From IMG/VR virus record IMGVR_UViG_3300037321_000063, positions 5,850 to 69,849 of that record: a stretch of 64,000 nt of DNA; one strand, 5' to 3'. This document shows, in pieces, positions 3,511-60,772 of this stretch; the stretch's first letter is position 1; each line of letters opens with the position of its first letter. The notes below the pieces were generated by a model. That model was not told where the DNA came from and did no database searches. It worked only from the letters and a program-made list of their open reading frames with translations. The stretch comes from a virus. Both the position numbers and the translations under genes were made by a program.

Positions 3511-3632
3511 TATTTATCTTCTTTAAAAAATTCATCAAATGTCGTATGTCCAACCGAAGTCGCAATTATATCCAGTTCGGTTATAATTATATCAAGATAT
3601 CTCATTATCTTATTAAAATCTGATTCACTCAT
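3510..3632 (-). CDS. small hypothetical protein (40 aa)
   Basis: Manual ORF MSESDFNKIMRYLDII... filling the gap between gp4 and gp2 with overlapping start and stop. Confidence 0.45.
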   Translation of the reverse strand: MSESDFNKIMRYLDIIITELDIIATSVGHTTFDEFFKEDK

Positions 3633-4075
3633 ACCTGTATCCCTAATCGACTTAGACCATGCTCGGTTAATATTACAAACTTAATACCCTTTTTAATGGA
3701 TGCATTATATGCCGCGAGCCATTTATCTTTATTCTTACTATAAGTTAATGCTTCATCCAATAGCCGCTTTTTATTTTTATTCTTGCCGCCTTTCGGTTCT
3801 TGAGTTTGTTTAAATGGCTTAACTTCAAACCAGAATTCTTGACCGCTATCATATTTGACCCAGAAGTCCATAAAATATCTATGCTTCTTACCGTCAGTAC
3901 TCCATACATAAGGAATAACGGTTTCTTCTGAGTTCCACCGGACAACCTTCGGATTATTATCCAAATGTATCATGAATTTTTGTTCCCAAGAAGAACGATA
4001 AGTAATTGCTTGAAAATTTCCTTTATACTTTGCATGGTTCTTTGGGACAAATTTACCTTTATATGTATTGTACAT
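3629..4075 (-). CDS. gp4: head completion nuclease gp4
   Basis: YKGKFVPKN..KYKG, YRSSWE, WNSEE, HRYFMDF, EVKP motifs; late promoter upstream. Confidence 0.95.
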   Translation of the reverse strand: MYNTYKGKFVPKNHAKYKGNFQAITYRSSWEQKFMIHLDNNPKVVRWNSEETVIPYVWSTDGKKHRYFMDFWVKYDSGQEFWFEVKPFKQTQEPKGGKNKNKKRLLDEALTYSKNKDKWLAAYNASIKKGIKFVILTEHGLSRLGIQV

Positions 4076-4079
4076 ACTA

Positions 4080-4087
4080 TATTTATA
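4080..4087 (-). promoter_or_regulatory. T4-type late promoter TATAAATA for gp4-gp2-gp54-gp26 operon
   Basis: Exact consensus 5 nt upstream of gp4 start; gp55 is encoded in the window. Confidence 0.85.
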
Positions 4088-4092
4088 CTCAC

Positions 4093-4118
4093 AAAAAAGC
4101 TAACACGAAGTTAGCTTA
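4093..4118 (-). terminator. intrinsic terminator
   Basis: AAGCTAAC-acgaa-GTTAGCTT hairpin, with a T-run on the minus strand. Confidence 0.7.
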
Positions 4119-4142
4119 TAAGTTATTTTAAGGTTTCAGTTT

Positions 4143-4328
4143 TTAATTATTTAAAATATCTGAAATATTAAGTGAGTCCACACTTAACAATTTATTATCT
4201 ACCCTTAATTTAACTATTAATTTAGTATCAGTACCACCAGCCATACTCATAGATTGATCTATATCCAATTCTACTTGCAGTTCTGAAAGCATATCGTATA
4301 CCATTATCTTAACGTCATTTTCAGTCAT
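4143..4328 (-). CDS. hypothetical protein
   Basis: ORF in tightly packed minus-strand accessory cluster. Confidence 0.6.
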   Translation of the reverse strand: MTENDVKIMVYDMLSELQVELDIDQSMSMAGGTDTKLIVKLRVDNKLLSVDSLNISDILNN

Positions 4329-4625
4329 TTACTCGACTCCCTTTTTAGTTTTATAGTAGTCAAAATCATTTTCATCAATGATCGGAATTATTTCATCTTC
4401 ATTAGCGGCTAATAACTCCTGTTCGATAACATAACGGCTTTTGTCAACGTCCTCGACAAATCCTAAAGCATTGGCAATTTCTATCTTTAGAAGCGCATTC
4501 GCGCGCTCTAATAGAAGGATTCGGTTCTCGGCTATAATCAATTGATCTGTCCTAAAATTATCGAGTTCTTGTAATGATTTTTCGTAATCATTACTTGCTT
4601 TGGTAACACATGCAAATTCGCGCAT
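4329..4625 (-). CDS. hypothetical protein (coiled coil)
   Basis: Abutting ORF in the cluster. Confidence 0.6.
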   Translation of the reverse strand: MREFACVTKASNDYEKSLQELDNFRTDQLIIAENRILLLERANALLKIEIANALGFVEDVDKSRYVIEQELLAANEDEIIPIIDENDFDYYKTKKGVE

Positions 4626-5005
4626 TATTCTGAGTCCTTACGTTCTAGTCGCATTCTAAGTATCTTTATGTGAGCATTATTTACTACAGCTAAGTTCTGC
4701 GCTTTTTTAGCATCTTCAACATAATTATATATCTGCTGTTCTTGCTCTATGACCTTATTAGTTAATTCGTCATTCAAGTCTTTGTAATTAATTGGTGTAG
4801 GATCTGGTATAACTTTAAACTTGAATTCATGATGCGCATGATGATCCCAGAAATGTTTCACACTCACGTATGATTGAGTTTCTGGCATATCGTGGACCGC
4901 AAATACCATACCTTCGCTATTTGAAAATTTGCATATAACAGTGTACTTGCCATAACTTATATGCTCACATATTGTCGGGAACACTTTACCATTCCATATT
5001 TTCAT
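4625..5005 (-). CDS. hypothetical protein
   Basis: Overlapping stop/start with neighbours; AAGGA RBS. Confidence 0.65.
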   Translation of the reverse strand: MKIWNGKVFPTICEHISYGKYTVICKFSNSEGMVFAVHDMPETQSYVSVKHFWDHHAHHEFKFKVIPDPTPINYKDLNDELTNKVIEQEQQIYNYVEDAKKAQNLAVVNNAHIKILRMRLERKDSE

Positions 5006-5175
5006 AATATATTTCCTTCGATTTGTGATTTTAATTTAACACGCCTAACTAAGTATTCTTCTACAGTTATACCATTACCTGTACGTATGAGCAAATAGTC
5101 TTTTTCTAATTCCTCGGCGGTGACTGTAGAAAATAGTTCATCGGCGGCGGCTAAACTTTTATCATATATGTTCAT
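5002..5175 (-). CDS. hypothetical protein (57 aa)
   Basis: Manual ORF MNIYDKSLAAADELFSTVTAEELEK...; ATGA overlaps at both ends. Confidence 0.55.
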   Translation of the reverse strand: MNIYDKSLAAADELFSTVTAEELEKDYLLIRTGNGITVEEYLVRRVKLKSQIEGNIL

Positions 5176-5945: not shown

Positions 5946-6548
5946 TTATTTTTTTTCAAAAACTAGAAAGTAAGAGTGAAACTTTCTAGCATGTTTTTGG
6001 TTTTTATGATTGTGACCTATAATTCTATTTTTAGCTAATAAAACAAAAATATCCTTTGTATAAAATCCAAGCCTTTCAGCTTCATTTATTATATGAATAT
6101 GAGAAAAGAACTGTTTGCCAGCACTAACCGTATCTTGACATTTGAATATTAAAACACCTTTTTTATTTAAAATCCTATGGAATTCTTCTAAGCATTCGTC
6201 ATACCAAGACCAAACATCCCGCATGTATCTGAATCCATGAAATCTTTCACCCATAATACCTGTAGGCTTATCTTTTGTATAACCCGCAAGAAAAGGTGGA
6301 TCAAACATAATATTTGATATTGAACAATCTTTAAAATCAAGGTCGTTAGCATTAAATTTCAATGTGTCATTAGTTTGTGGGTATAGATCAGATTTATGAA
6401 GGGGTTGATTTATACCTGATTTTTTATAAAAATTACCTTTTGAGTATGTGGGATCAAGATTTATATTCTCACCTTTTAAGTGTAATTTAATGATGTTTTT
6501 TATAATGTCTTGTTGACTGTAACTTATTGTAGATATAATTTCATTCAT
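5946..6548 (-). CDS. DNA amino-methyltransferase (DPPF motif)
   Basis: LDPTYSKGNF SAM-binding-like motif, MFDPPF catalytic motif, RILNKKGVLIFKCQD, HARKFHSYFLVF. Confidence 0.8.
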   Translation of the reverse strand: MNEIISTISYSQQDIIKNIIKLHLKGENINLDPTYSKGNFYKKSGINQPLHKSDLYPQTNDTLKFNANDLDFKDCSISNIMFDPPFLAGYTKDKPTGIMGERFHGFRYMRDVWSWYDECLEEFHRILNKKGVLIFKCQDTVSAGKQFFSHIHIINEAERLGFYTKDIFVLLAKNRIIGHNHKNQKHARKFHSYFLVFEKK

Positions 6549-26429: not shown

Positions 26430-29531
<3,102 letters not shown>

Positions 29532-34274: not shown

Positions 34275-35090
34275 ATGTCATTTATAGTAGAAAGTCAAGT
34301 TGAAATGTTTGAAGTTAAAACTAAGGGTAATGAACTGTACATCGAAGGTGTTTGTATGGTTGCAGACGTTATCAATAAAAATAAGCGTCTTTATCCTAAG
34401 AGCGTAATGGAAGCCGCCGTAGCCAAATATAATTCTTCTCATGTAATGGAAATGAAAGCGTTGGGTGAATTGAATCATCCAGCTAGACCAAATCCAGATC
34501 CAGCCGAAGCTAGTCATATAATCGTTGAAATGAAAATGGTTGGCGAAAAGGTTTATGCTAAGGCTAAAGTACTAAATACCCCAAGAGGTCAAATTCTTAG
34601 AGGTTTGGTTGAAGGTGGCTGGCGCGTTCAGACAAGTTCAAGAGGACTTGGTAATCTACAGGAAAAAACCTTGAATGGTCAAAAGTTCAATGAGGTAACT
34701 GACTTTAATATTACCGTTGGGTTTGATGTTGTTCAGGATCAGTCAGCGCCGGGCGCGACAATGACAGGCGTATACGAATCAATCGGAAATGACTACGTAA
34801 ACATTCAAGAAGTCGGCGAACAAAATGCCGATGAATGGAATAACATATTCAATAAAATGGAAACGTTAACTGAAGCTAAGACAATTAATATGGTAGCCGA
34901 ATTGCAGAAGATTAATAACCACTTAAGCAAAGCCGCTGATATGGCTGATAAGCTTTATACTAAAGTTATGCGGTTAGATAGCGGTGACGATAAAATGGAA
35001 AGAGTCGCAAAGAATTACAAAGTAGATCTCAATAAGTGGGCTGATATGGCAAGTAGAATAGCACGAACATTTGAAAAGGAAAACCGATGA
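34275..35090 (+). CDS. gp21: prohead protease gp21 with C-terminal helical extension
   Basis: LYIEG, NKNKRLYPK, ALGELNHP, SSRGLG, DVV..SAPGA motifs. Confidence 0.93.
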   Translation: MSFIVESQVEMFEVKTKGNELYIEGVCMVADVINKNKRLYPKSVMEAAVAKYNSSHVMEMKALGELNHPARPNPDPAEASHIIVEMKMVGEKVYAKAKVLNTPRGQILRGLVEGGWRVQTSSRGLGNLQEKTLNGQKFNEVTDFNITVGFDVVQDQSAPGATMTGVYESIGNDYVNIQEVGEQNADEWNNIFNKMETLTEAKTINMVAELQKINNHLSKAADMADKLYTKVMRLDSGDDKMERVAKNYKVDLNKWADMASRIARTFEKENR

Positions 35091-35661: not shown

Positions 35662-35718
35662 CTATAACATTATTTTATACTTATATAACATTATTTTGAA
35701 ATGTAGTGACATTTGGAA

Positions 35719-35726
35719 TATAAATA
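35719..35726 (+). promoter_or_regulatory. late promoter TATAAATA for gp22-gp23
   Basis: Exact consensus; preceded by the direct repeat TATAACATTATTTT twice (35663-35697). Confidence 0.85.
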
Positions 35727-35754
35727 TAAGTGTAGAACGAAATTGGAGAGTCTA

Positions 35755-36585
35755 ATGAGCGATTTAAAAAAGGAACTTACTGAAAGATATAATCTATTGG
35801 TTTCAGAAAGTTCAGATCAAATTTCAGAAGAAGTTTCCACCTTATTCGAAGGAACATCTATAACTGAAACGAATCAGAAGAAATTTCTACATATTATCGA
35901 AGCATCCGTTGCATCTAAAGCATTATCTATTGCCGAAGATTCAATTAATGAACTGAATGACAATGTAGAAGAATATGCTGAGTACGTTAAAGAATCTTTA
36001 GAAGTTAAAGCCAACGATTACGGTGAATATATTAAAGAAATTTTTAGTAATAATATTAATTCATATTTAGAATATGTTGCAGACGAATATATTAAAGAAA
36101 ATAAATTAGCGGTAACTAATGGATTAAAAGCAGAAATGTTCGAATCATTAGTTATGTCAATGAAAGAAATATTTGTTGAAAACCACATTGTCGTACCAGA
36201 AGATGGTGTTGACATTGTTGCTGAGTTACAAGAAGAAGTTAATGAGCGTGATGTGTTGAACGATAAATTGTTGAACGAAAACGTATCATTAAAATCTGAA
36301 ATGACTTCATTCAACAAAAATAAAGAAATTTCTGAAGCGTGTTTGGATTTAGCAGACACACAGAAAGAAAAAGTTTTAGATTTGTCTGAATCTCTGGAAT
36401 ACAACGATGAATTTGCTAGTAAGCTTAAAAATATCGTTGAGTTTGCATCTAAAAAGAATACCCCAAGGGTAGACGTTTCAGGACAAACGATTAACAAAAC
36501 CAATATTACTGAAAATGTGAAAGACGTAGCAAACGTAAGTGACATCAAAATGAATGCCTATCTAAAATCGGCTTCAGGTAATTAA
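35755..36585 (+). CDS. gp22: prohead scaffolding protein gp22
   Basis: ENKLAV..GLKAEMFES, FVENHIVVPE..VDIVAEL motifs; ATG at 35755 with GGAG RBS. Confidence 0.93.
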   Translation: MSDLKKELTERYNLLVSESSDQISEEVSTLFEGTSITETNQKKFLHIIEASVASKALSIAEDSINELNDNVEEYAEYVKESLEVKANDYGEYIKEIFSNNINSYLEYVADEYIKENKLAVTNGLKAEMFESLVMSMKEIFVENHIVVPEDGVDIVAELQEEVNERDVLNDKLLNENVSLKSEMTSFNKNKEISEACLDLADTQKEKVLDLSESLEYNDEFASKLKNIVEFASKKNTPRVDVSGQTINKTNITENVKDVANVSDIKMNAYLKSASGN

Positions 36586-38278: not shown

Positions 38279-38307
38279 AAAAAGCCGACTATTTAGTCGG
38301 CTTTTTT
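38279..38307. terminator. bidirectional intrinsic terminator after gp23
   Basis: AAAAAGCCGACTA-tt-TAGTCGGCTTTTTT. Confidence 0.9.
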
Positions 38308-40008
38308 AATTCTTTCGTATACATATTTTATATTTCCACAATCCCATATTCGTCTATATCCATTCATATACATATTTTCGTATTCGGTTAATTCTGGATT
38401 GAATACATCCAATAACTTACTTAACTTATGTTTTTGGAATTGCACTCTATTATTCAATACCAATGACCTCTTACCGTCCCAATAATAATATGATGGTTTG
38501 GTTACACTATCTAACAAGAATCCATTAGAATTGTATACGTTTCCCATAGATAATCGTCTATTCGCATAACTTATGATTTTATCATAACTAGAATGTTTTA
38601 ATAGTTTACTAAACCCACCAACAACAACATATCCACTTTTGGTACAAGATCTAAGCAATTCAATTCCCTCTGTGTATCTAGCAATTCCGAAAGTCATTAA
38701 GCTCACCAATTCACCATTATACATTAGACCAATTTTACTAGATGCATTAACATTACCCTGTATATGATTTTCTATACAAAACATCTTAGAATCCTTTGAG
38801 GAAACAACCACAAATTTACATTTTCTAGCATATATGCGTTTAGATAATCCTAATTTATTTCGAATCATCGACTTCCATATTTCTCGTTTGTTTGGTTCTT
38901 CCCACTCATTTTCGAATATATGAAATAGCTGTATACCTTGACCTTCACACATGTTTGTTTTTAATAAGTGTTGTTTAGACCACTTACTATCGTCTTCAAC
39001 ACAACCGCTTGAATGCCAATATAAGCCATTAAATTCTATAGCTAGGTTATGCGAAGGAATGTAAAAATCAAGCTCGTATGGATTAATTACTTTGCGCGTA
39101 GTTTCGAATTTTACACCAAGATCACTTAAAAAATCTGAAATTTCTTGCTCTTGTCTACTACGGTATAATAATTTATCTGGTGGTGAGTATATACCATAAG
39201 ATATAGACAAATAGTTTATGACGTTATCAGGTAATTCATTGTTGGGGTATTGCTCTAAAAATACACATTTATCTAAAAGTGTTTTATCAATTGTATATTT
39301 TGTAACATAAGTCGATTTGACAACGGATAACCTATAATTTTCAATACTACCGTATTTATCAATTTTGGTAGATTTAGACTTTTTGTGATGTTCCTCATTC
39401 CAATAGCTACCGTATTTTTCCTTTCTAGTGGATTTAATCTTATCTTGAATATGTGAAATCGTGCCTATATTTTCTGTACCATATCTACAAAAAGTTGTAG
39501 ATTTAATCTTATCGCTGTTCCTACTAGTACCATACTTATCAATGCCAGTATTATTTCTAATAGATTGCTGATTTGAGTTTAACGACCTACATTTAGACGA
39601 ACAGAATATATTTCCAAATTTAATAGCAATTCCACATTCTTCACAAGTAGGAAAAACACAACCGTTGTTAATAATCCTTACTCTATCAGTTAACGAATAA
39701 TCATACTCCACTCCACCTTTGAAAAAAGTCGATGGTAATTCTTTTGTTAGATTTAGTATTTCATCAACTAAGTGTATATTATTAGATAATATTATTTTAA
39801 TATTTGGATTTATTTTACCATTACTGAGAATTAAATCCTCAATAGATAAGATTACATCGTCTAGTTCTATAAATGAGTAATTTGTATATTTTTGGGAATC
39901 TAATTTTCGCTTAACAACTTTAATACCTTCACCAATAGCGGTAGACGCTTTTGATATTGATTTATATATAACCCCATAGATAGATACAGGTCTTTGTTTA
40001 TTACTCAT
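38293..40008 (-). CDS. free-standing homing endonuclease (Hef-like, PD-(D/E)XK-type)
   Basis: N-terminal VIYKSISKAS DNA-binding motif, CxxC...FCSSKC, KYG repeats, YELDFYIPSHNLAIEFNGLYWHS, C-terminal RIYARKC...GGFSKL...RIWDCG. Confidence 0.8.
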   Translation of the reverse strand: MSNKQRPVSIYGVIYKSISKASTAIGEGIKVVKRKLDSQKYTNYSFIELDDVILSIEDLILSNGKINPNIKIILSNNIHLVDEILNLTKELPSTFFKGGVEYDYSLTDRVRIINNGCVFPTCEECGIAIKFGNIFCSSKCRSLNSNQQSIRNNTGIDKYGTSRNSDKIKSTTFCRYGTENIGTISHIQDKIKSTRKEKYGSYWNEEHHKKSKSTKIDKYGSIENYRLSVVKSTYVTKYTIDKTLLDKCVFLEQYPNNELPDNVINYLSISYGIYSPPDKLLYRSRQEQEISDFLSDLGVKFETTRKVINPYELDFYIPSHNLAIEFNGLYWHSSGCVEDDSKWSKQHLLKTNMCEGQGIQLFHIFENEWEEPNKREIWKSMIRNKLGLSKRIYARKCKFVVVSSKDSKMFCIENHIQGNVNASSKIGLMYNGELVSLMTFGIARYTEGIELLRSCTKSGYVVVGGFSKLLKHSSYDKIISYANRRLSMGNVYNSNGFLLDSVTKPSYYYWDGKRSLVLNNRVQFQKHKLSKLLDVFNPELTEYENMYMNGYRRIWDCGNIKYVYERIKKAD

Positions 40009-43396: not shown

Positions 43397-44185
43397 TCAA
43401 ATAAAATTATCAATCGAATATTGATTTATTCTATCACTGGCTATTTTAAAATAACCCTCGTCTAGCTCTATGCCGATGAATGACCTGTTTAGGTTTTTAG
43501 ATGCTACTCCTGTAGTTCCTGAACCCATAAATGGGTCAAGCACAGTATCACCCTCTTTGCTCCAACTTATAACGTGATCATTGGCTAATTGCCAAGGAAA
43601 CGCGGCTGGGTGACCAGTTTTATGATTCCCTTTGTTTGTTACTAATTTCCATATATTCCATCTTGCGCCAAATTCTTTTATTTTATTGCCATAGCAAGAT
43701 GCTTTATTTAGTGCTCCGCTTGCCGATCTGTTAGTTCCAGTAACTTTTCGACCAAAAGAAAGATTAATTCTGTCATGTATAATATTCCTTGCTTTGGGCG
43801 CGCCTTTGCTAAATACAAACATATACTCAAAGCAACTTTGATATCTATTTTTATCTGGAAATGATATAGCGTCTTTTTCATAAATCATCGTATCGTGCAA
43901 CCTAAACCCACACTGCATTGCCCACAAAGCTTGCTTGAAACTTGTGCCTGTCTCGCTACCTTTTACAGTGGCATCGCCAACAACCCAGACAACAACACCA
44001 CCATCCTTAGTAACTCTATACAATTCTGCAATAACGGACTTCCATACATGTTCACCCCATTGTTCATTATTACCGTTGTAACTTCTTAAGTTATCATATG
44101 GTGGGCTTGTTACAGTTAAATCAACCGAGCCGTCTGGTATTTCTTTCATACGTTCAAGACAATCACCTTGCATTAGATTAATCAT
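43397..44185 (-). CDS. DNA amino-methyltransferase, beta class (SPPY, probably N4-cytosine)
   Basis: TSPPY, HPAAFP, VLDPFMGSGTT motifs. Confidence 0.92.
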   Translation of the reverse strand: MINLMQGDCLERMKEIPDGSVDLTVTSPPYDNLRSYNGNNEQWGEHVWKSVIAELYRVTKDGGVVVWVVGDATVKGSETGTSFKQALWAMQCGFRLHDTMIYEKDAISFPDKNRYQSCFEYMFVFSKGAPKARNIIHDRINLSFGRKVTGTNRSASGALNKASCYGNKIKEFGARWNIWKLVTNKGNHKTGHPAAFPWQLANDHVISWSKEGDTVLDPFMGSGTTGVASKNLNRSFIGIELDEGYFKIASDRINQYSIDNFI

Positions 44186-44934
44186 ATAAAATCATCAATA
44201 GAAAATTGATTTATTCTATCACTCGCTATTTTAAAATAATCTGGATCTAGTTCAATGCCTATAAAAGACCTATTTAAATTCTTAGCCGCTACGCCTGTTG
44301 TTCCGCTACCCATTGTAAAGTCTAAAACGGTTTCGGTTTCGTTCGTGTAGGTTTTAATTAGGTATTCCATTAATGCTACTGGTTTTTGTGTTGGGTGGAA
44401 TTTAGCCTTACTATCTACTGTATGTTTTGTTATTGATAAAGGGTAGTTTGTGTGAGTCTGAATAGCATCCCTATTTGCTGGTCCGTAACACTCTCCACTC
44501 GATCCAACCCCTATCCTACCCCTATCCCCTTTTGAGATTGTAGGAAAGTCTTTTTTAAGTAATGCCTGAGGGTTATATGTACATTGTTTCCCATAAAAAA
44601 CTACAATATCCTCATGCTTAACTAGTGGTCTTTTCTTAGCATTAAGATGTCCAGTTGCTTTAGATTTTTCCCATATCCAACAATACTTAAACATTTTGTA
44701 ATTAGAGCTAATCAAATTGGTCGTAAAAGGCTGTGATGCTGTCATAACTATCGCACCACTAGGTTTTATAATTCTTTTCAACTGCTCCCACATTGGTTCA
44801 AGCGGTATAATTGAGTCCCATGTGCATTTTGTCGTACCATAAGGTGGATCAGTCAAAACCATATCAACTGAACCATCTGGTATTTCTTTCATGCGTTCTA
44901 AGCAATCGCCTTGCATTAGATTAGAAGTCAACAT
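44182..44934 (-). CDS. DNA amino-methyltransferase, beta class (DPPY, probably N6-adenine)
   Basis: TDPPYG, HPTQKPV, VLDFTMGSGTT motifs. Confidence 0.92.
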   Translation of the reverse strand: MLTSNLMQGDCLERMKEIPDGSVDMVLTDPPYGTTKCTWDSIIPLEPMWEQLKRIIKPSGAIVMTASQPFTTNLISSNYKMFKYCWIWEKSKATGHLNAKKRPLVKHEDIVVFYGKQCTYNPQALLKKDFPTISKGDRGRIGVGSSGECYGPANRDAIQTHTNYPLSITKHTVDSKAKFHPTQKPVALMEYLIKTYTNETETVLDFTMGSGTTGVAAKNLNRSFIGIELDPDYFKIASDRINQFSIDDFI

Positions 44935-54790: not shown

Positions 54791-54866
54791 GGATGTGTAG
54801 ACACGTATGGATCGTGTTCGGGTTGTAACTCCGATCCGCAAGGCAACATAGGTTCGATTCCGATGA
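54791..54866 (+). pseudogene. tRNA-Tyr(GUA) lacking acceptor 3' strand; orphan T-arm at 54901-54917
   Basis: TCGGG-TTGTAAC-TCCGA arm, variable arm and GGTTCGATTCC present; no CACATCC or CCA. Confidence 0.65.
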
Positions 54867-54936
54867 AATTATGGTAAACGTAAATCCACAATGCTTAGAC
54901 ACTGGTTCGAATCCAGTTAAAATAATTAAATAAGTG

Positions 54937-54973
54937 TTGACTTATATAAAATGATTGGTTACACTAGGTTCAT
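54937..54973 (+). promoter_or_regulatory. early promoter with AGGT motif
   Basis: TTGACT-17-TACACT-AGGTTCAT. Confidence 0.65.
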
Positions 54974-54999
54974 CGAGTCAATGCATAGAGAAGTATATT

Positions 55000-55353
55000 A
55001 TGAATAAAGAAAATAACAGTTATATTAGTCAAGAATGTAGTGGTATTGAAAAAATTGACCATTATATTAGTCAAGAACTCCACGATACAAATAAGTTTTG
55101 TGAAGATGGTGAACGTATAATTGTAAAGGTTTACTTTATAATTGCCCAGTATAAATCTGGTAAAAGACTTCGCCATTGTGCTACATTGGAGTGTGCTGAT
55201 CCATTAAGACATATTTTAATAAAAATAGCTGATAATAAAATACCAGATTATCAAAATCATTGGTATGAGGTACATCCACAATATGGATCTCCTTATCATG
55301 CTAAAATTGGTGACTATCATTTATACGATAAAGATGATAGAAATGCAAGATGA
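55000..55353 (+). CDS. hypothetical early protein
   Basis: ATG at 55000 after the promoter; duplicated YISQE. Confidence 0.6.
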   Translation: MNKENNSYISQECSGIEKIDHYISQELHDTNKFCEDGERIIVKVYFIIAQYKSGKRLRHCATLECADPLRHILIKIADNKIPDYQNHWYEVHPQYGSPYHAKIGDYHLYDKDDRNAR

Positions 55354-55470
55354 TATCAATGGCTGTAAAATATCAGCTAGGTTGACCAAAGCCTATTATA
55401 ATGATGGTAGTTTAAGTACCGTAAGGGGTGAACCCCAACACTACTATTTATTTTGTTTTAACCTCTATTC

Positions 55471-55497
55471 AAAAAGCGACCAAATTGGTCGCTTTTT
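55471..55497. terminator. intrinsic terminator
   Basis: AAAAAGCGACCAA-a-TTGGTCGCTTTTT. Confidence 0.85.
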
Positions 55498-55519
55498 ATT
55501 GCCTTCAAAAAGTTTAATG

Positions 55520-55579
55520 TATAAATATACGTATAAATAGATGAAATTAAAATCATAGTAGTATATAATAGGTACTCAA
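55520..55579 (+). promoter_or_regulatory. two late promoters plus an early-type -10 with AGGTACTC motif
   Basis: TATAAATA at 55520 and 55532; TATAAT-AGGTACTCA at 55564. Confidence 0.75.
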
Positions 55580-55600
55580 TTGGTTAACAGGGGTTTTAAA

Positions 55601-56059
55601 ATGAAAAGTTTTTCAGAATATATGACAGAATCGGTAGATGTTAAAAATTTACCAAAGACGGTACATATCGCTCAATACAACGGTCAAGCGGGTAACTACA
55701 CCGGATTTACTGGGGCGGTCGCGTCAATACATCAAAAGCTTGCAAAGTCAGACCAAGCCATATTTCAGGTCGATTCCTACGATAGAAAGGAATTTGGTAA
55801 GGTTCTCAAGTCTGGTGACATTTTATGTAGAATGTCTTCGCCAATGTCAAGTAATACCAATGAAGAAAACCGAACTATTTGCATTATAAATATAAAGAAT
55901 GCAAATGTTAAATTTATCAATCAAGATAAATATAATGATGGTATCATTGCGGTTGATAGAGCGTTGAAGTTTAAGTTTTTAACCATCGACCCAAAAGTTA
56001 TGCAATATTTCGAAATCTCTGGTAAAGCTGAAGACTACGTTAAACCAATTACCTACTAG
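55601..56059 (+). CDS. putative internal head protein (MKSFSEYMTE)
   Basis: CTS-like start at 55601 with AGGGG RBS. Confidence 0.72.
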   Translation: MKSFSEYMTESVDVKNLPKTVHIAQYNGQAGNYTGFTGAVASIHQKLAKSDQAIFQVDSYDRKEFGKVLKSGDILCRMSSPMSSNTNEENRTICIINIKNANVKFINQDKYNDGIIAVDRALKFKFLTIDPKVMQYFEISGKAEDYVKPITY

Positions 56060-56072
56060 GAAAAACACTTAT

Positions 56073-56336
56073 ATGAAAACATTCACAGAATTTCTTTCGG
56101 AAGAATCTGGTGCGCCCAAGCTATCAGATAATGGGTGGAAAGGGTTACTTATCTGGACTAAATATAAGTCAGCATTTAGAAAGTCAGCGGCTGAACAATC
56201 TGATGTTGATTTAGAAAGTGCAAAATTGGAATTCACTAAATTGGGTATTATGAAAAGTGGTAAAATGAAAGACTTAAAAAAGATGTATAAGTTAGCTAAA
56301 AATAAATTTCCAAATTCTGAAGGGGACTTTACATGA
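56073..56336 (+). CDS. putative internal head protein (MKTFTEFLSE)
   Basis: Near-consensus CTS; basic mature part. Confidence 0.75.
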   Translation: MKTFTEFLSEESGAPKLSDNGWKGLLIWTKYKSAFRKSAAEQSDVDLESAKLEFTKLGIMKSGKMKDLKKMYKLAKNKFPNSEGDFT

Positions 56337-56725
56337 AATCGTTTACAGAATTTCTTTCAGAAGAGTTATCAAGATCTGACATCGGTGTAGTAGAAAAATT
56401 TGCGGATAAGTTATTTGCCGCCGTTGGTGTAGACATTGATTTGTCTGGTAAACACTTTAGAGATAGAGTTAATGATCCCAGAAATGGTGAGCCGATTACC
56501 ATCGTAGAATTAATGAGTATGTTTAAAAAGGTATTCGCAAAGCATGGTCCGAGGATCGGTGGAATGAGTCCCGGTATTGAAGCCGTCATGTTTGACATAA
56601 ATTCAAACATCAATATTCCATTTATGGTGAAATACGATAATCAAAATGATGAATTGGATGTGATAGCCAAGACTACCATGCGCAAGCGCGACTTTAAAAC
56701 TAGAACAGCTAAATTAACAGTTTAA
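56333..56725 (+). CDS. putative internal head protein (MKSFTEFLSE), possible RelE/BECR-like fold
   Basis: Near-consensus CTS; HFRDRVNDPRN and IAKTTMRK motifs. Confidence 0.72.
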   Translation: MKSFTEFLSEELSRSDIGVVEKFADKLFAAVGVDIDLSGKHFRDRVNDPRNGEPITIVELMSMFKKVFAKHGPRIGGMSPGIEAVMFDINSNINIPFMVKYDNQNDELDVIAKTTMRKRDFKTRTAKLTV

Positions 56726-56730
56726 ATAGC

Positions 56731-56768
56731 TTGCATTTAGCCGTCTAGCCGTCTATAATAGGTACTCA
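56731..56768 (+). promoter_or_regulatory. early promoter with AGGTACTC motif
   Basis: TTGCAT-17-TATAAT-AGGTACTCA. Confidence 0.75.
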
Positions 56769-56794
56769 TTCAGTCACTAAGCGAGAAATATATT

Positions 56795-57091
56795 ATGAAA
56801 GACTTAAATGTTCGTTGGTTTAAAGACATACTATTTTTATTTTTGTGCCGCGATCGCTCGTTTTCCAAAGACGAAGCTACGTTTGAAGTTAATCTAATTA
56901 TTAACTTGGGAATGGCTAATCTTATAGAGTCTTCTAAAACGTCTAAACTTGAAAATGATTTATACATTAGAACTTCGCGCATTGGTGCTACCAAGACGCT
57001 GAATAGACAAGCTAGAATCGGCATTGCAATGTCAATTAATAAAGCGATAAATCATTCTGAGTTTGGTGGCGTAACTACGCCGTATAAATAG
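56795..57091 (+). CDS. hypothetical early protein inserted in the internal-protein array
   Basis: Has its own early promoter; no CTS; late promoter TATAAATA at 57083 in its 3' end. Confidence 0.6.
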   Translation: MKDLNVRWFKDILFLFLCRDRSFSKDEATFEVNLIINLGMANLIESSKTSKLENDLYIRTSRIGATKTLNRQARIGIAMSINKAINHSEFGGVTTPYK

Positions 57092-57102
57092 AGGTATATA
57101 TC

Positions 57103-57288
57103 ATGACAATAAAGAAAATATTTGCAAAATTACCGAAGGGTTCAAAGAACTCTAAGAATGGTACTATATTCGCCACTGGCAACTTAGCGGTTGCTTTGGG
57201 TGTAAATGATTATGATACCGTGGATATTAAAACTATATCGGCTGTGCAAATACAGAAATTGTCAAACTTACTAGGGGTAACAAATTGA
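57103..57288 (+). CDS. hypothetical late protein
   Basis: GAGG RBS after late promoter. Confidence 0.6.
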   Translation: MTIKKIFAKLPKGSKNSKNGTIFATGNLAVALGVNDYDTVDIKTISAVQIQKLSNLLGVTN

Positions 57289-57551
57289 TATCATTTAACG
57301 AATTTTTATTAGAAGCCGAATTTCCAAAAATCCTTAAAGATTTTACAAGTGCTACTGGATTGGATAAATTTAATTTAACCGATTATAAAGTGGTTGGAGA
57401 TCCTAAAAACTATTGGATCGCTTACGCTAAAAATAATAACAATCCGAAGAATAAGGCAAAGCCATATTCTGCATTAGACTCAACTGGTGAAATATGGGAA
57501 AACAAAAGCTTAGTTGAACTAAAGAAAGTAATCGTAGACCAAGGAATATAA
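57285..57551 (+). CDS. putative internal head protein (MISFNEFLLE)
   Basis: CTS-like start (TTG). Confidence 0.68.
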   Translation: MISFNEFLLEAEFPKILKDFTSATGLDKFNLTDYKVVGDPKNYWIAYAKNNNNPKNKAKPYSALDSTGEIWENKSLVELKKVIVDQGI

Positions 57552-57553
57552 AC

Positions 57554-57916
57554 ATGAAAACATTTAACACATTTATGAATGAAGCATCTAGGTATAAAAA
57601 GCCTAAAAACGCATTTCCACAAAGTAGAAAGTAGTTTAGTAGTTCTAAAGCCGCTTTAAAGGCGGGTAATGTTGTTATGGATGCTAACCCAGATGTTACA
57701 GAAAAGGGAACTTTGGCTATTGCTATGTTCAAAAATTCTAAAAAATTCATTGTAGTTTGGGTTTCTGTTAGTGGTGGTAGTATGGGTGCAATGGGCGCAA
57801 AGTTCGTTGATGCGGGTCACTCGGTAACGACTACGGCGCTAATAGATGCCGCTACAGAACAAGGTACAGAAGATTGGGAAGCTGGCGGGGACTATGTGTT
57901 ACAATGGAAAATGTAA
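57554..57916 (+). pseudogene. CTS-tagged gene (MKTFNTFMNE) interrupted by in-frame TAG at 57632
   Basis: AAGGA RBS; the same frame continues FSSSKAALKAGNVVMDANP... to 57916. Confidence 0.7.
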
Positions 57917-57946
57917 TTAAAAACGAAGAAGATTGGGGAAGTAATT

Positions 57947-58524
57947 ATGAAATCATTTGAAGATTATATTAAAGAGTCTAGTTTAAGTCGTATTAAGTCT
58001 AAAATAGACTCTCACGCCACTGGTGCTATTACAGCATTCAGGGGTTCATTTACGAAGTCGCAAAATCAGCAACGTAATAAAAATTACTGGCTATGATTCT
58101 GCGTAGGGGTTTTCAAGTAACTACCGTCAAAGGTAGTTATATCGAAGATTTTGGAACTGATAGCGCAAAGGAAGTTGGTGAAACATCATTCTTTGTTGTC
58201 AACCCACAAGAGGGTAATGACGGCGGCGCATTGGAAAATGAATTAATTAAGTATGGTAAAATGTTTGATCAAGATTCCATTTTATCAGTACCATTTAAAG
58301 GCGCGGCTAAGTTGATTGGAACTAATGGTTCAGACTTCCCCGGTTATAACAAATCCGTTCCAGTTGGTTCGGCTGGCTACGGAAAATCTGGTGAATTCTT
58401 TAGTCGAGTTAACGGTCGGTCTTTTAATTTTTCTGAGGGTGAGCATATTGCATCATCTAGTAAAAATGGTAGATGGGCTTTAAATCAAATAGCCGAATCG
58501 GACTGGCAAAATATAGATGTATAA
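57947..58524 (+). pseudogene. CTS-tagged SAM-lyase-like gene (MKSFEDYIKE) with frameshift in A-run at about 58079-58083
   Basis: Adding one A joins ...ITAFRGSFTKSQNQQRNK to KLLAMILRRGFQVTTVKGSYIE...ETSFFV...FDQDSIL. Confidence 0.7.
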
Positions 58525-58549
58525 ATAGATGATAGGGGTATCAAATAAT

Positions 58550-58873
58550 ATGCAATCATTTATGGAATTTGTTCAAGGTGGTAATCTTAATGGAATTTCT
58601 TTACCACAATTAAAGCGAGAAATAAAAAACGGCGCTGGTTTAGAAGTATCTACACATAAAACTATCAATATGGGAAGTCATGCTGGTATAAAATTAGACT
58701 ATGGTAATGGTGTAGCAGATGATTCATTTAAGATTCAAAGGGTCAATGGTAAGGAATTTAATATCGAAGTTCATAATAATAACCAAGAAATTATGAACAA
58801 AATCGAATCCTATTTAAAAACTACCGGATACGAAATCAGTAGAAGTGCTTTCAAGTTGAAGGTGAGCGTATAA
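58550..58873 (+). CDS. putative internal head protein (MQSFMEFVQ)
   Basis: Late promoter at 58520; CTS-like start at 58550. Confidence 0.6.
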   Translation: MQSFMEFVQGGNLNGISLPQLKREIKNGAGLEVSTHKTINMGSHAGIKLDYGNGVADDSFKIQRVNGKEFNIEVHNNNQEIMNKIESYLKTTGYEISRSAFKLKVSV

Positions 58874-58877
58874 ACCT

Positions 58878-59342
58878 ATGATGTTGTCATACAAGCGATA
58901 TGTACAAGAATCTGTATATAAGTTGACTAGGCAAAAAGCTGGTGTATTTAAGGTACTAGATACTAAGTTAAATGAAACTGGTGTAACTCTGAATCAAAAT
59001 ATGAGTTTTGGTAAAGATTGGGATCTTGTAATTGGTGGCGTATCTAAGGGTTCATTTGAAACTAAACACGATGCAACATGTTTCATCGAAAAATCCCCAG
59101 AATTATTGGATGAAGCATATTCTTTCATATTCGTGGATACTGATTTAGTTAGAAATGAATATGTTGATCAGTTGTGGGAATTTGTAAAATCTAATAATTC
59201 TGAGATAAGAGAATCCATAAAATCTAAAAAATCATTACTCAATGAATCAAAATATTGGAAACTTAATATTAAGGACAATGTAATAATATCCGCTTCTATC
59301 TTTAAAGATAGGGGTACTAGAAAACTAATAGCGAAATTATAA
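58878..59342 (+). CDS. putative internal head protein (MLSYKRYVQE)
   Basis: Degenerate CTS; internal LDE and LNE sites. Confidence 0.55.
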   Translation: MMLSYKRYVQESVYKLTRQKAGVFKVLDTKLNETGVTLNQNMSFGKDWDLVIGGVSKGSFETKHDATCFIEKSPELLDEAYSFIFVDTDLVRNEYVDQLWEFVKSNNSEIRESIKSKKSLLNESKYWKLNIKDNVIISASIFKDRGTRKLIAKL

Positions 59343-59581
59343 TGCACATATTATATGGTATAGTTTGTAGAAATTTTCACATAGCCGAAAGAGAGTTATT
59401 GGGTGTGGGTATCATTGTGAAAAAAATTGCATACTCAAATGATGTTAAAGCCTACATAGAAAATGATTCAAAACAGCGCGCACAATTCCCATCATTATTT
59501 TACAATAACCAGTGGTACATCGGTATTTCACAAATATTTAATTTAATAAAATCCAAAAAAGAACTTGATACCTCCTTATAA
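59342..59581 (+). CDS. degenerate glutaredoxin-like protein
   Basis: ILYG..C and FPSLFY....YIG resemble the glutaredoxin fold, but CxxC is incomplete. Confidence 0.4.
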   Translation: MHILYGIVCRNFHIAERELLGVGIIVKKIAYSNDVKAYIENDSKQRAQFPSLFYNNQWYIGISQIFNLIKSKKELDTSL

Positions 59582-59626
59582 CTAGTGTATTCTATCTGTC
59601 AATAAATCAATCAGACAGAGAATATT

Positions 59627-60772
59627 ATGAGTGAAACTGTAACATTAGTTAAGTTTACCAAACTTGGAAAAATTCAAGAATGGAAATGTTGGAGAGAAGA
59701 TTCCACCGTCTTTGCCGAATACGGTCAACAAGATGGTAAAAAGACTTTATCTAAAGTTGAAGCAAAAACCACTAACATCGGTAGAGCCAACGAACGAAAT
59801 CCAACCCAGCAAGCCGAATTTGAAGTTGATGCGGCATATGAAGCTCAAATTGCAAATAAGCATTATCGACACACTGTTGCCGAAGCTGAAATTGTTGCCA
59901 ATAGTTGTAGCATTCCAATGAAAATTAATAACTACAAAGATCATGGTCAAAAGATTAATGATAACTGTTTTGCCCAGCGTAAATTCAATGGTAGCCGTAG
60001 AACTGTCATAAATGGCGAATTCATTGCAAAGTCCGGTAGAGTTGAAGAATGCACTATTCCAGAAATTCAAGAACAGGTTGACCAATTGGGGTTAGATTTT
60101 GATTCTGAAACTTATGCTCATGGATTATCATTACAGCGCATTCGTAGCGCATGGTTAAGCCCTACGGAAGATAGAATCAATAAGAGGGGTCAAAACTCCT
60201 ATAAAGATTCAAAGCTCTTAAAACTCGTTATATTTGATATTCCGGTACAGGGTGTAACATTTCGAGATAAAGTTGAAATGTTATATGCTATTAAAGATAA
60301 AATTTCCTTATTAGGGTTACATCGATTGGAAGTGGAAATTCCGCAATATTTGACAAATAGACAAAGCCATGATGATTTTTTTGATAGAGCCTTAACTGAC
60401 GGTTTTGAAGGTGTGGTGTACAGAAATCTGGATAGTACGTTTGAATTTGGTGTGCGTAGTTACCAGACTCAGAAGCGTAAGCCTAGATACGATGCAGAAG
60501 CCAAAGTCCTCAGTGTAACGGCTGACAAGAAGGGTAACGGCGTTTTAACCGTACAATCTTGCGATAGCATGGATAACGTTAAATTCAAGTGTGTGATGAA
60601 GGTTACACGCCGTGACGGTAACGATTATCCAAAAGATCTCGATGCTATGTTGCTATTAGTTGGTAAATGGATTACATTCAGCTACGAAGAATTAAGCGAC
60701 AATGGCATTCCTACAAAACCAGTTGGTGAAATGGAACGCGAATGTGATGAAACCGGACAACCATTAGTTTAG
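59627..60772 (+). CDS. ATP-dependent DNA ligase
   Basis: QRKFNGSR motif I variant, FDSETY, IFDI, GFEGVVYR, KRK, TFSYEELS..GIP motifs. Confidence 0.85.
   Translation: MSETVTLVKFTKLGKIQEWKCWREDSTVFAEYGQQDGKKTLSKVEAKTTNIGRANERNPTQQAEFEVDAAYEAQIANKHYRHTVAEAEIVANSCSIPMKINNYKDHGQKINDNCFAQRKFNGSRRTVINGEFIAKSGRVEECTIPEIQEQVDQLGLDFDSETYAHGLSLQRIRSAWLSPTEDRINKRGQNSYKDSKLLKLVIFDIPVQGVTFRDKVEMLYAIKDKISLLGLHRLEVEIPQYLTNRQSHDDFFDRALTDGFEGVVYRNLDSTFEFGVRSYQTQKRKPRYDAEAKVLSVTADKKGNGVLTVQSCDSMDNVKFKCVMKVTRRDGNDYPKDLDAMLLLVGKWITFSYEELSDNGIPTKPVGEMERECDETGQPLV

Follow-up and report, generated by a model that had tools for sequence, protein, structure and literature searches.

In T3-like phages, SAM lyases are familiar as counter-defence enzymes that are expressed early, and IPI* of phage T4 is an injected anti-restriction protein. 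On T3 infection, the SAM lyase is made before all other proteins (PMC8406200); it has been described as a monomeric nine-stranded barrel in a complex with MetK (bioRxiv 10.1101/2023.02.27.530186). For another SAM lyase, Svi3-3, a role of G56 and Y58 in the SAM pocket has been reported (PMC7877911); mutant data have been presented for Svi3-3 E69 and T3 E68, and the same two sources also cover the Q-D residues of T3 and the Q-E-S residues of Svi3-3 (PMC7877911; bioRxiv 10.1101/2023.02.27.530186). In the ten-residue leader of T4 head proteins, residues 4 and 7 are described as targeting the protein and residues 8 and 10 as directing its processing by gp21, which cuts after L/I-x-E (PMC9026906). 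In the Synechococcus phage S-CREM2, gp6 is listed as 'S-adenosyl methionine hydrolase (virion protein)' and was detected with 19 unique peptides by mass spectrometry of purified virions, and its authors proposed that, entering the host along with the DNA, it counters restriction (PMC10665884). Thus, a virion-borne SAM lyase is already in print; the same authors point out that non-structural proteins, if abundant, might be purified along with the virions (PMC10665884). The terms 'capsid targeting', 'CTS', 'internal protein' and 'prohead protease' do not occur in the main text of that paper (PMC10665884), and none of the literature matches listed connects a capsid targeting sequence with a SAM lyase.

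Here, we analysed a locus in a T4-like phage from a salt lake, within a window (the whole stretch of DNA that was analysed) of 64,000 nucleotides. The reading that we favour, and hold to be reasonably probable, is that the locus is a T3-type SAM lyase gene whose product, when intact, is head cargo carrying a T4-type tag, and that in this strain the gene is dead by a strain-specific mutation. Its features are the following.

57935..57941, plus strand: Shine-Dalgarno-like GGGGAAG, read from the sequence, 5 bases 5' of the start codon
57947..57976, plus strand: codons of MKSFEDYIKE, a T4-type capsid targeting sequence with the I-x-E cutting motif at its end
57947..58096, plus strand: first-half ORF of 49 aa, residues 1-45 in the family frame and the last 4 residues out of frame
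58079..58083, plus strand: A5 run in the K-K codons, one base fewer than in all intact relatives
58093..58524, plus strand: second-half ORF of 143 aa, family residues 50-192, carrying the PF23780 core
58132..58140, plus strand: codons of G63-S64-Y65, the Gly-x-Tyr of the SAM pocket, with G63/Y65 aligned to T3 G55/Y57
58171..58173, plus strand: codon of E76, invariant and aligned to T3 E68 and Svi3-3 E69
58270..58278, plus strand: codons of Q109-D110-S111, aligned to T3 Q94-D95 and Svi3-3 Q104-E105-S106

One protein of ~192 aa is split here into two halves, a 49-aa ORF (57947-58096) and a 143-aa ORF (58093-58524). An earlier note on this DNA had described such a split gene, broken by one base in an A-run, and its coordinates, the A5 at 58079-58083 and the sequence proved to be as described. 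Both ORFs match a single PHROG, phrog_30877, collinearly (profile positions 25-65 and then 70-184 of 209). From the ATG at 57947, frame 0 runs to QRNKNYWL and a stop at 58094-58096, which overlaps the ATG of the second ORF at 58093 in an ATGA. An alignment with 16 intact homologs, together with the window contig, confirmed the one-base break: the intact relatives read QRNKKLLAM(I/L) across the join, so that one additional base in the A-run would restore the family frame. An uninterrupted single frame is absent from the window contig and present in 44 homologs of 187-205 aa as well as in contigs of three other samples. According to the model of a relative that is 94% identical, the first half contains the leader, an N-terminal helix, strand beta1 (GAITAFR) and part of helix alpha1. 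The 143-aa half is 94% identical to the intact relative P0001, and it is devoid of the tag, strand beta1, most of helix alpha1 and a ribosome-binding site of its own, no Shine-Dalgarno-like element being readable in the sequence before the ATG at 58093.

The overlap of the first stop with the second ATG, which encodes a conserved internal Met of the family, might suggest two working genes: one would yield a small tagged peptide and the other, through translational coupling at the ATGA, a lyase without a leader. Every pocket residue also lies within the second ORF. We find this arrangement barely credible, given that the second ORF has neither strand beta1, nor most of helix alpha1, nor a Shine-Dalgarno-like element, that the mutations A13V and R14C, in the corresponding N-terminal part of Svi3-3, are reported to disable that enzyme (PMC7877911), and that a short form occurs in only one of 45 matches (P0045, 139 aa). 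The other 44 sequence matches are intact, 187-205 aa in length and contain PF23780.

The broken gene belongs to Pfam PF23780 (S-AdoMet lyase). Against a cut-off of 28, the 143-aa half from the window itself scored 29.3 bits, all five intact homologs tested scored 46.6-65.8 bits, and T3 gp0.3 scored 143.2 bits. Because both the window half and the intact homologs lie above the cut-off, the likeness to the T3 SAM lyase, judged at the level of sequence, is more than chance; a pairwise profile alignment to T3 alone by hhalign was weak (E 0.0051, probability 7%). The five motifs named in the earlier note were all found in the order given there (ITAFR 28-32, N40..R43, G63.Y65.E67, E79.S81..V84 and QDSIL 109-113), and the T3 counterparts that it had listed (VSAFR, N..R, G.Y.E, E.T..V and QDCVL) are indeed present in T3 gp0.3 and align to them. 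Altogether the family comprised 2158 representatives at E <= 0.001; one homolog, AEI88246.1, is from phage IBB_35. A profile of the 44 homologs gave no match at E <= 1 to PDB sequences, which leaves Pfam and the comparison of folds as the ties to SAM lyases of solved structure. No matches were returned by megablast of 57000-59500 against a phage collection or by PADLOC scans of P0001, PANV1 GD1_46 and eight cargo ORFs of the window, and a literature text search for DUF3293, PF11697 and PF23780 returned 0 papers.

The fold was examined on an AF2 model of P0001 (pLDDT 74.8; low confidence at residues 146-164). With this model, the top five Foldseek rows were all phage SAM lyases, the best at E 2.8e-3 and none at E <= 0.001. 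In VIA-align the model matched the T3 SAM lyase best (7ock_A, Z 11.6, rmsd 3.1, 130 of 151 residues aligned; 8bb1_E, Z 11.2), followed by Svi3-3 (Z 7.0-7.4), with the best unrelated chain at 5.7. Taken with the Pfam scores and the intact homologs, this comparison, which the earlier note had suggested as a check, upholds the assignment to the T3-type SAM lyase family. The residues G63, Y65, E76, Q109, D110 and S111 were invariant in 44 of 44 homologs and are all encoded in the second ORF; the pocket residues of the window protein align to G55, Y57, E68, Q94 and D95 of T3, positions covered by the published mutants (PMC7877911; bioRxiv 10.1101/2023.02.27.530186).

SAM-AMP lyases, a group of type III CRISPR ancillary enzymes and the AcrIIIB4 candidate, have their fold and catalytic Glu and Gln in common with SAM lyases, and a substrate cannot be set by sequence alone. 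The substrate might thus be a SAM-derived signal such as SAM-AMP, in which case the protein would be a packaged anti-CRISPR and no anti-restriction enzyme. The model is far closer to the T3 SAM lyase (Z 11.6) than to the SAM-AMP lyase of C. botulinum (9gad_E, Z 4.9), a difference in structural score that does not decide substrate choice. A published account finds only the Glu and the Gln structurally conserved between the two enzyme types, and in the present family the SAM-lyase element Gly-x-Tyr does not vary; we therefore regard a SAM-derived signal as an unlikely substrate and continue with SAM itself.

In front of the enzyme stands MKSFEDYIKE. T4 IPII and IPIII start with MKTYQEFIAE, and the window leader fits the T4 signal, with aromatic residues at 4 and 7, I at 8 and E at 10. 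The motif fits 10 of 2685 Met codons in the six frames; all ten are starts of plus-strand ORFs, one being merely the second Met of an MM start, and there is none elsewhere in ORFs. It heads about ten other ORFs in the window, three of which lie in the head module and flank the protease gene. The earlier note had called the protein behind this decapeptide capsid-targeted, and the likeness of the decapeptide to IPII and IPIII and its confinement to ORF starts support a T4-type capsid-targeting sequence. In the PANV1 locus the tag occurs on 7 of 32 ORFs, the ortholog of the window gene among them, and starts resembling the tag are also seen in homologs from Microcystis, Alishewanella and Campylobacter phages. 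The main text of the PANV1 paper contains no mass spectrometry and no mention of gp48, the homolog. Residue E10 is part of an E-S-S-L-S-R helix that is conserved whatever precedes it, and its invariance is therefore no evidence of cleavage.

It is possible, though on balance we think it unlikely, that the decapeptide is no packaging signal and that the intact protein acts in the cytoplasm like T3 gp0.3. The tag pattern fits only 10 of 150 family representatives, leaving 140 without the motif as defined by the pattern used; one subgroup, although found in tag-using phages, begins only 4-5 residues ahead of the conserved helix; and carry-over might explain the S-CREM2 detection, a caution voiced by its authors (PMC10665884). 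On the other hand, the motif is limited to ORF starts and also heads ORFs of the head module on either side of the protease gene, the leader matches an experimentally defined T4 signal at positions 4, 7, 8 and 10, and the sole homolog with a proteome has such a leader and was seen with its 19 peptides in virions (PMC10665884). The idea of a virion-delivered SAM lyase, which the earlier note had put forward, gains outside support from this S-CREM2 homolog, and the accompanying remark 'not packaged', made there of the T3 SAMase, is outdated where this family is concerned (PMC10665884).

The genes that would serve head cargo are present in the window, and signals for late expression were looked for around the locus.

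34275..35087, plus strand: gp21-type prohead protease, by which the leader is expected to be removed (phrog_207, head maturation protease, E 1.1e-52)
35713-36582: scaffolding core gene (phrog_237)
57083..57090, plus strand: T4 late-promoter-like TATAAATA, the closest one upstream of the gene on its coding strand, at 864 bases
57554..57916, plus strand: neighbouring tagged gene, starting MKTFNTFMNE and broken by an in-frame TAG at 57632-57634

The element TATAAATA, which we take to be the T4 late consensus, occurs 30 times in the window, compared with 16.3 +/- 4.3 times in shuffled sequence; none lies directly upstream of the gene, the nearest being that at 57083. Sigma-70-like sites were no commoner than chance, and no terminator-like site was found in 54800-59700. 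Neither Pfam nor PHROGs supplied names for the other cargo proteins.

Taking these observations together, we propose that in the intact relatives the protein would be made late in infection and that its first ten residues would bring it into the prohead's scaffolding core, where the gp21-type protease probably removes the leader after I-K-E10. The resulting enzyme of ~20 kDa would be ejected together with the DNA and, ahead of all phage gene expression, would split SAM into methylthioadenosine and homoserine lactone; SAM-dependent defences, e.g., type I/III restriction and BREX, would thereby be blunted. In the window strain, A5 in place of A6 or AAAAAG in the K-K codons ends the tagged N-terminal piece after 49 residues. 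The break would then be a loss-of-function mutation in a dispensable cargo gene, beside a second cargo gene with an amber stop.

The evidence for the break is at the level of contigs, with a depth of about 9 in the source sample. Both assemblies of that sample, the window and a Logan contig (depth about 9), have A5. Contigs of three other samples carry an extra base at the site. In that of sample X2 it is an A behind 58078, giving A6 where X1 has A5, in a contig of 191 bases with a depth of 2.6 and 0 other differences over 190 bases; in those of X3 and X4 it is a G behind 58083. The neighbouring gene shows a different pattern, as its TAG is common to X1 and X2 and position 57632 is C in the X3 and X4 contigs; its PANV1 ortholog, GD1_46, is intact. 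Recoding of TAG was considered as the cause of this amber codon and rejected because TAG ends 4 of 59 long ORFs and none of three tRNAs is a suppressor (in a record that is 46% complete).

The break lies within a homopolymer, all 44 homologs of 187-205 aa are intact, the near-identical X2 contig has A6, and the comparison is one of contigs whose sequencing platform is not on record. These facts would also fit a frameshift produced by assembly or sequencing, with an intact gene in the phage of the source sample. We judge such an artefact improbable, since A5 recurs in the two source-sample assemblies and the neighbour's TAG, shared by X1 and X2, is a base substitution and no homopolymer artefact. 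In addition, the window contains 323 A/T runs of at least 5 and yet its long structural genes, including an ORF of 2013 aa, are open, which indicates that there is no systematic homopolymer error. Plain loss of the gene in one strain is the most likely explanation of the break, and assembly error a less likely one. As the gene is still whole in the relatives, the break has the look of an ordinary loss at strain level and not of a switch.

A switch was what the earlier note had entertained: a selected or reversible off state that would spare SAM for three methyltransferases of the phage. In such a scheme the K-K homopolymer would be a reversible on/off point of an injected SAM lyase, operating by phase variation or by -1 ribosomal or transcriptional slippage and holding the enzyme off, or at a low level, for which we see very little probability. 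Equally remote, in our view, are its two extensions, namely that A5 (off) and A6 (on) follow the host's SAM-dependent restriction or the SAM need of the phage's own methyltransferases, and, with just as slender a chance, that the A5/A6 difference between two near-identical populations is a snapshot of the process. A5 and A6 do occur in near-identical strains of two samples, a -1 shift at the AAA codon would yield the exact family sequence N-K-K-L-L, the downstream RNA is more stably folded than its shuffled versions (z -2.72; equalled by 0 of 200 shuffles), and two complete DNA methyltransferases are encoded in the window.

Against this, the run is not conserved. In 20 related loci the site reads A6 in 1, AAAAAG in 11, AAGAAA in 5 and AAAGAA in 3, a count from which 11 further loci are absent as the site was not found in them by pattern. 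With its five A, T AAA AAT is neither an X XXY YYZ heptamer nor a homopolymer of at least 8. As a rule, efficient transcriptional slippage or phase variation needs a run longer than five A. The small hairpin arises from the T-T-V-K-G-S codons, and the intact PANV1 gene has it too (z -1.74), for which reason the downstream structure was rejected as a specific frameshift stimulator. Moreover, the neighbouring gene is dead by an ordinary amber codon. The reversible off state is thus not borne out.

The same applies to the supposed conflict with the methyltransferases. Two of the three that the earlier note had counted are complete, whereas the third is a truncated remnant, and intact homologs coexist with DNA methyltransferases in three of the four complete phages as well as in S-CREM2, where the methyltransferase is two genes from the lyase homolog. 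Family searches found a Dam-type enzyme in PANV1 and in the Alishewanella phage Slicko01, both of them cultured relatives, several N6/N4 enzymes and one C5 enzyme in Mel-JY01, and no DNA methyltransferase in CC_R7; a search of PANV1 with the window's methyltransferase protein gave no match.

We therefore return to a tagged SAM lyase gene lost in one strain. The broken copy itself is of little consequence. What it points to is that the enzyme family known from T3 may also serve T4-like phages as pre-made head cargo, here as in S-CREM2, and that such a lyase would act before any phage gene is read, as does T4's IPI*. A clear T4-type address tag on the enzyme would provide a mechanism for the published proteomic detection, and the tag is found on family members of Paraglaciecola, Alishewanella, Microcystis, Campylobacter and Synechococcus phages. 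Two adjacent cargo genes broken in one strain suggest that such genes are dispensable and quick to decay.

Among the known systems, T3 gp0.3 (7OCK, 8BB1) shares Pfam PF23780 with the window protein and is its best structural match, and the SAFR/TAFR, G-x-Y-x-E, Glu and Q-D motifs of the two align, although their identity is only 17-18%. The window protein has in addition a leader of ~10 residues, the E-S-S-L-S-R helix before the Pfam domain and a C-terminal helix of ~28 residues, and it shows no visible counterpart of the MetK-binding N-terminal tail described for T3 (bioRxiv 10.1101/2023.02.27.530186). Whereas the T3 enzyme is early, the window gene lies within a run of tagged, probably late genes, and unlike T3 gp0.3 this copy is frameshifted. 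Svi3-3 (6ZM9, 6ZNB) has the ferredoxin-like core and the conserved Gly, Tyr, Glu and Gln in common with it, but forms a trimer whose active sites lie at the interfaces, and is a weaker match (Z 7.0-7.4) than T3. S-CREM2 gp6, which falls in the family (hhalign probability 98%, E 1.3e-13; PF23780 70 bits), is likewise from a T4-like phage and starts with MKDFDSFLEE, in which L-E-E is followed by SSLSRL, similar to the window leader; it differs in its length of 414 aa with a long basic C-terminal extension, in its identity of about 30% and in being intact.

With T4 IPI, IPII, IPIII and Alt the window protein shares the ten-residue leader, with aromatics at 4 and 7 and L/I-x-E at 8-10, and the window phage has a gp21-type protease and a scaffold, as T4 does. 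Packaging and cleavage, features of the T4 internal proteins, are predicted for the window protein. As with the T-even internal proteins, which have been described as arrays sharing a leader (PMC3012670), the window contains unrelated small genes that have the leader alone in common. The nature of the cargo sets the locus apart: IPI* is a stoichiometric nuclease inhibitor and Alt an ADP-ribosyltransferase, whereas the cargo here is predicted to be an enzyme that degrades a small molecule.

The locus is a predicted SAM lyase of the T3 type that carries a candidate T4-type head-loading tag and has been inactivated in this strain by the loss of one base. Its two overlapping reading frames are a single broken gene:

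57947-58096, + strand: ORF1, 49 aa
58093-58524, + strand: ORF2, 143 aa

ORF2 is read in the -1 frame with respect to ORF1, with ATGA as the overlap. Searching with the 143-aa half brought up 45 proteins, 44 of which are 187-205 aa long and contain PF23780, the other being a 139-aa short form. The homologs align to ORF1 residues 1-45 plus the entire ORF2, the nearest relative, P0001, with 94% identity. The earlier note had placed a one-base slip in the A-run, which lies exactly at 58079-58083. This is borne out by the collinear matches of ORF1 (25-65) and ORF2 (70-184) to phrog_30877 (profile length 209) and by the homologs, which read through the join (QRNKKLLAM vs QRNKNYWL-stop in the window); with one base added to the run, the frame becomes continuous.

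The Pfam S-AdoMet lyase family PF23780 scored 29.3 bits on the window's own half (cut-off 28), 46.6-65.8 bits on intact homologs (five out of five tested) and 143.2 bits on T3 gp0.3. Searching PDB sequences with a profile of the 44 homologs gave nothing at E <= 1. A weak hhalign match to T3 alone (E 0.0051, probability 7%, 116 columns) pairs TAFR with SAFR, G63-x-Y65-x-E67 with G55-x-Y57-x-E59, E76 with E68, and Q109-D110 with Q94-D95, and all five T3 motifs listed in the earlier note were found in the T3 sequence retrieved. Svi3-3 G56, Y58, E69, Q104 and E105 are described as substrate-binding (PMC7877911) and the T3 mutants E67Q, E68Q, Q94A and D95A are reported (bioRxiv 10.1101/2023.02.27.530186). 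The residues aligned to these pocket positions are invariant in all 44 homologs.

An AlphaFold2 model was made for P0001 from the 44-sequence alignment (mean pLDDT 74.8; residues 146-164 poor). None of the Foldseek rows for this model reached E <= 0.001, but the top five were all phage SAM lyases (2.8e-3 to 9.6e-2). When 989 chains were re-aligned, T3 SAM lyase ranked first (7ock_A, Z 11.6, rmsd 3.1, 130 residues; a further chain, 8bb1_E, Z 11.2). Svi3-3 reached Z 7.0-7.4, no unrelated chain exceeded 5.7, and a SAM-AMP lyase scored 4.9. This ranking supports the SAM-lyase fold that had been proposed. The break falls within helix alpha1 of the model, so strand beta1 and the greater part of alpha1 would be missing from ORF2. 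The family numbers 2158 representatives at E <= 0.001. Among the best 150 of these (P0049-P0195), 50 are longer than 260 aa; a Pfam scan of 13 long representatives found two tandem SAM-lyase domains in five, and many other long forms have an unnamed N-terminal region of about 150 residues in which the motif W-[IV]-S-P-x-G...H-I recurs. In nearly all representatives, an E-S-[SG]-L-S-R helix lies ahead of the Pfam domain.

Contigs of four sequencing runs were aligned to 57600-58900. Run X1, the likely source, gave one contig identical to the window (depth about 9). X2 gave a 191-base contig that differs only by one extra A (A6; depth 2.6), and the strain in X3 and X4, which shares about 96% identity and matches P0001, has one G more after position 58083 (AAAAAG); at contig level, the frame is therefore open in all three other samples. 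In the X3/X4 strain, 37 other letters also replace three bases at 57938-57942, in the ribosome-binding region upstream of the lyase start. There are 323 A/T runs of at least five bases in the window and the long genes are open, so nothing suggests a systematic homopolymer error. The upstream neighbour is broken as well:

57554-57916, + strand: gene whose start (MKTFNTFMNE) resembles a capsid-targeting leader, cut at 57632-57634 by an in-frame TAG

At this codon the intact ortholog GD1_46 of the cultured relative phage PANV1 has Thr, and the X3/X4 contigs have CAG. TAG terminates 4 of 59 long ORFs and is a genuine stop in the window. That two neighbouring cargo genes carry different lesions points to decay rather than regulation.

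The earlier note had suggested that the slip might be a selected or reversible off state, since late expression would conflict with three SAM-dependent methyltransferases. The RNA downstream of the run folds better than shuffles (z -2.72), but the PANV1 gene, which is intact, has the core hairpin too (z -1.74). The run is not conserved: in 20 related loci (the site pattern missed 11 further ones), A6 occurs only in PANV1, the others having AAAAAG (11), AAGAAA (5) or AAAGAA (3). T AAA AAT at the site is not a canonical slippery heptamer. With the neighbour dead by an amber codon and methyltransferases coexisting with intact homologs, we regard a switch as very improbable. As to the enzymes themselves, two are complete and the third is only a truncated remnant:

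43400-44934: two complete N6/N4 methyltransferases
5949-6548, - strand: N6/N4 methyltransferase-like ORF (profile positions 4-107 of 221) ending at an A8 run

Same-frame read-through of the latter meets five TAA stops, and it is probably a decayed gene. Of the four phages that have both a complete genome and an intact homolog, three encode DNA methyltransferases, namely PANV1 and Slicko01 (a Dam-type enzyme each) and Mel-JY01 (one C5 enzyme and several of the N6/N4 type); a search of CC_R7 for three methyltransferase families found none. The T4-like cyanophage S-CREM2 likewise encodes a DNA adenine methylase two genes upstream of its virion-detected SAM hydrolase on the same strand (locus L044, 405-1295 and 1459-2703). 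Coexistence thus being the rule, no off state is forced, and decay remains our reading.

The viral record (69,849 bases, estimated 46% complete) comes from a salt-lake metagenome, and the window is that of a T4-like myovirus, with PHROGs naming, in the order known from T4, the genes for baseplate, sheath, tube, portal, prohead protease, scaffold and major capsid protein. Its large terminase is split over two overlapping ORFs (26893-27990 and 27963-29528, + strand), and in the second the Terminase_6C nuclease domain is preceded by about 280 N-terminal residues that include a NUMOD3 motif (homing-endonuclease-type); a mobile element may have inserted in this gene. An HNH/homing endonuclease of 571 aa (38296-40008, - strand) immediately follows the major capsid gene, the position of segD in T4, and a TnsA-like endonuclease N-domain ORF (3632-4075, - strand) lies close to the baseplate genes.

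The first ten residues of the lyase, MKSFEDYIKE, resemble the leader of T4 IPIII and IPII (MKTYQEFIAE, translated from the T4 record). According to the review PMC9026906, ten N-terminal residues of IPIII are sufficient to direct loading into the head, targeting involves residues 4 and 7, processing involves residues 8 and 10, and gp21 cleaves after L/I-x-E. The lyase leader shows F4, Y7, I8 and E10, agreeing with the capsid tag claimed earlier. When all six frames were scanned, a loose form of the motif fitted 10 of the 2685 Met codons, all of them + strand open-frame starts (one only as the second Met where the start reads MM) and none elsewhere in ORFs. A slightly different pattern marks 11 ORFs; three belong to the head module, where they flank the gene for the protease. 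This gene and the array of ORFs that share the start are at:

34275-35087: prohead protease (PHROGs)
33688, 35087, 35437, 49338, 49891, 55601, 56073, 56333, 57285, 57554, 57947, 58550, 58878, + strand: M-K-[ST]-[FY]-x-x-[FY]-[ILMV]-x-E starts

Most ORFs of the tagged array, otherwise unrelated to each other, received no name from Pfam, PHROG or PADLOC. At the PANV1 locus the motif is on 7 of 32 ORFs, including the lyase ortholog GD1_48. Distant homologs start with MQFKQYILGE/SSLSRI (Microcystis phage Mel-JY01), MNFEQLLE...LSE/SSLSRI (an Alishewanella phage) and MKFKDHIQG...NE/SSLARL (a Campylobacter phage, with neighbours starting MKFIDYLKN and MTFKEFILEQ). The E-S-S-L-S-R helix is kept whatever precedes it, so the invariance of E10 is no sign of cleavage. 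The tag pattern fits only 10 of the best 150 of the 2158 representatives (several near-misses fall outside this count), and one subgroup, in phages with tagged genes, starts only 4-5 residues ahead of the helix; with the helix kept regardless, the tag appears to be an add-on in some lineages.

The window is enriched in TATAAATA, the consensus of T4 late promoters (30 observed vs 16.3 +/- 4.3 expected), and this sequence precedes several structural and tagged genes. The copy nearest to the lyase gene lies at 57083, and no terminator-like site separates the two. We infer late expression.

A SAM-lyase-family virion protein has already been published for S-CREM2 (PMC10665884), whose ORF6 ('S-adenosyl methionine hydrolase', 3837-5081) was detected in the virion proteome with 19 unique peptides and 26.3% coverage. 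Its authors suggest that ORF6 enters the host and guards the DNA from restriction, cautioning that its detection is possibly carry-over; the main text nowhere mentions a capsid targeting sequence. Our tblastn match H28 falls within ORF6, whose protein matches the lyase family (hhalign probability 98%, E 1.3e-13; PF23780 70.1 bits) and starts with MKDFDSFLEE FDRDQESLEE/SSLSRL. A T4-type tag is a likely mechanism by which such SAM lyases are packaged.
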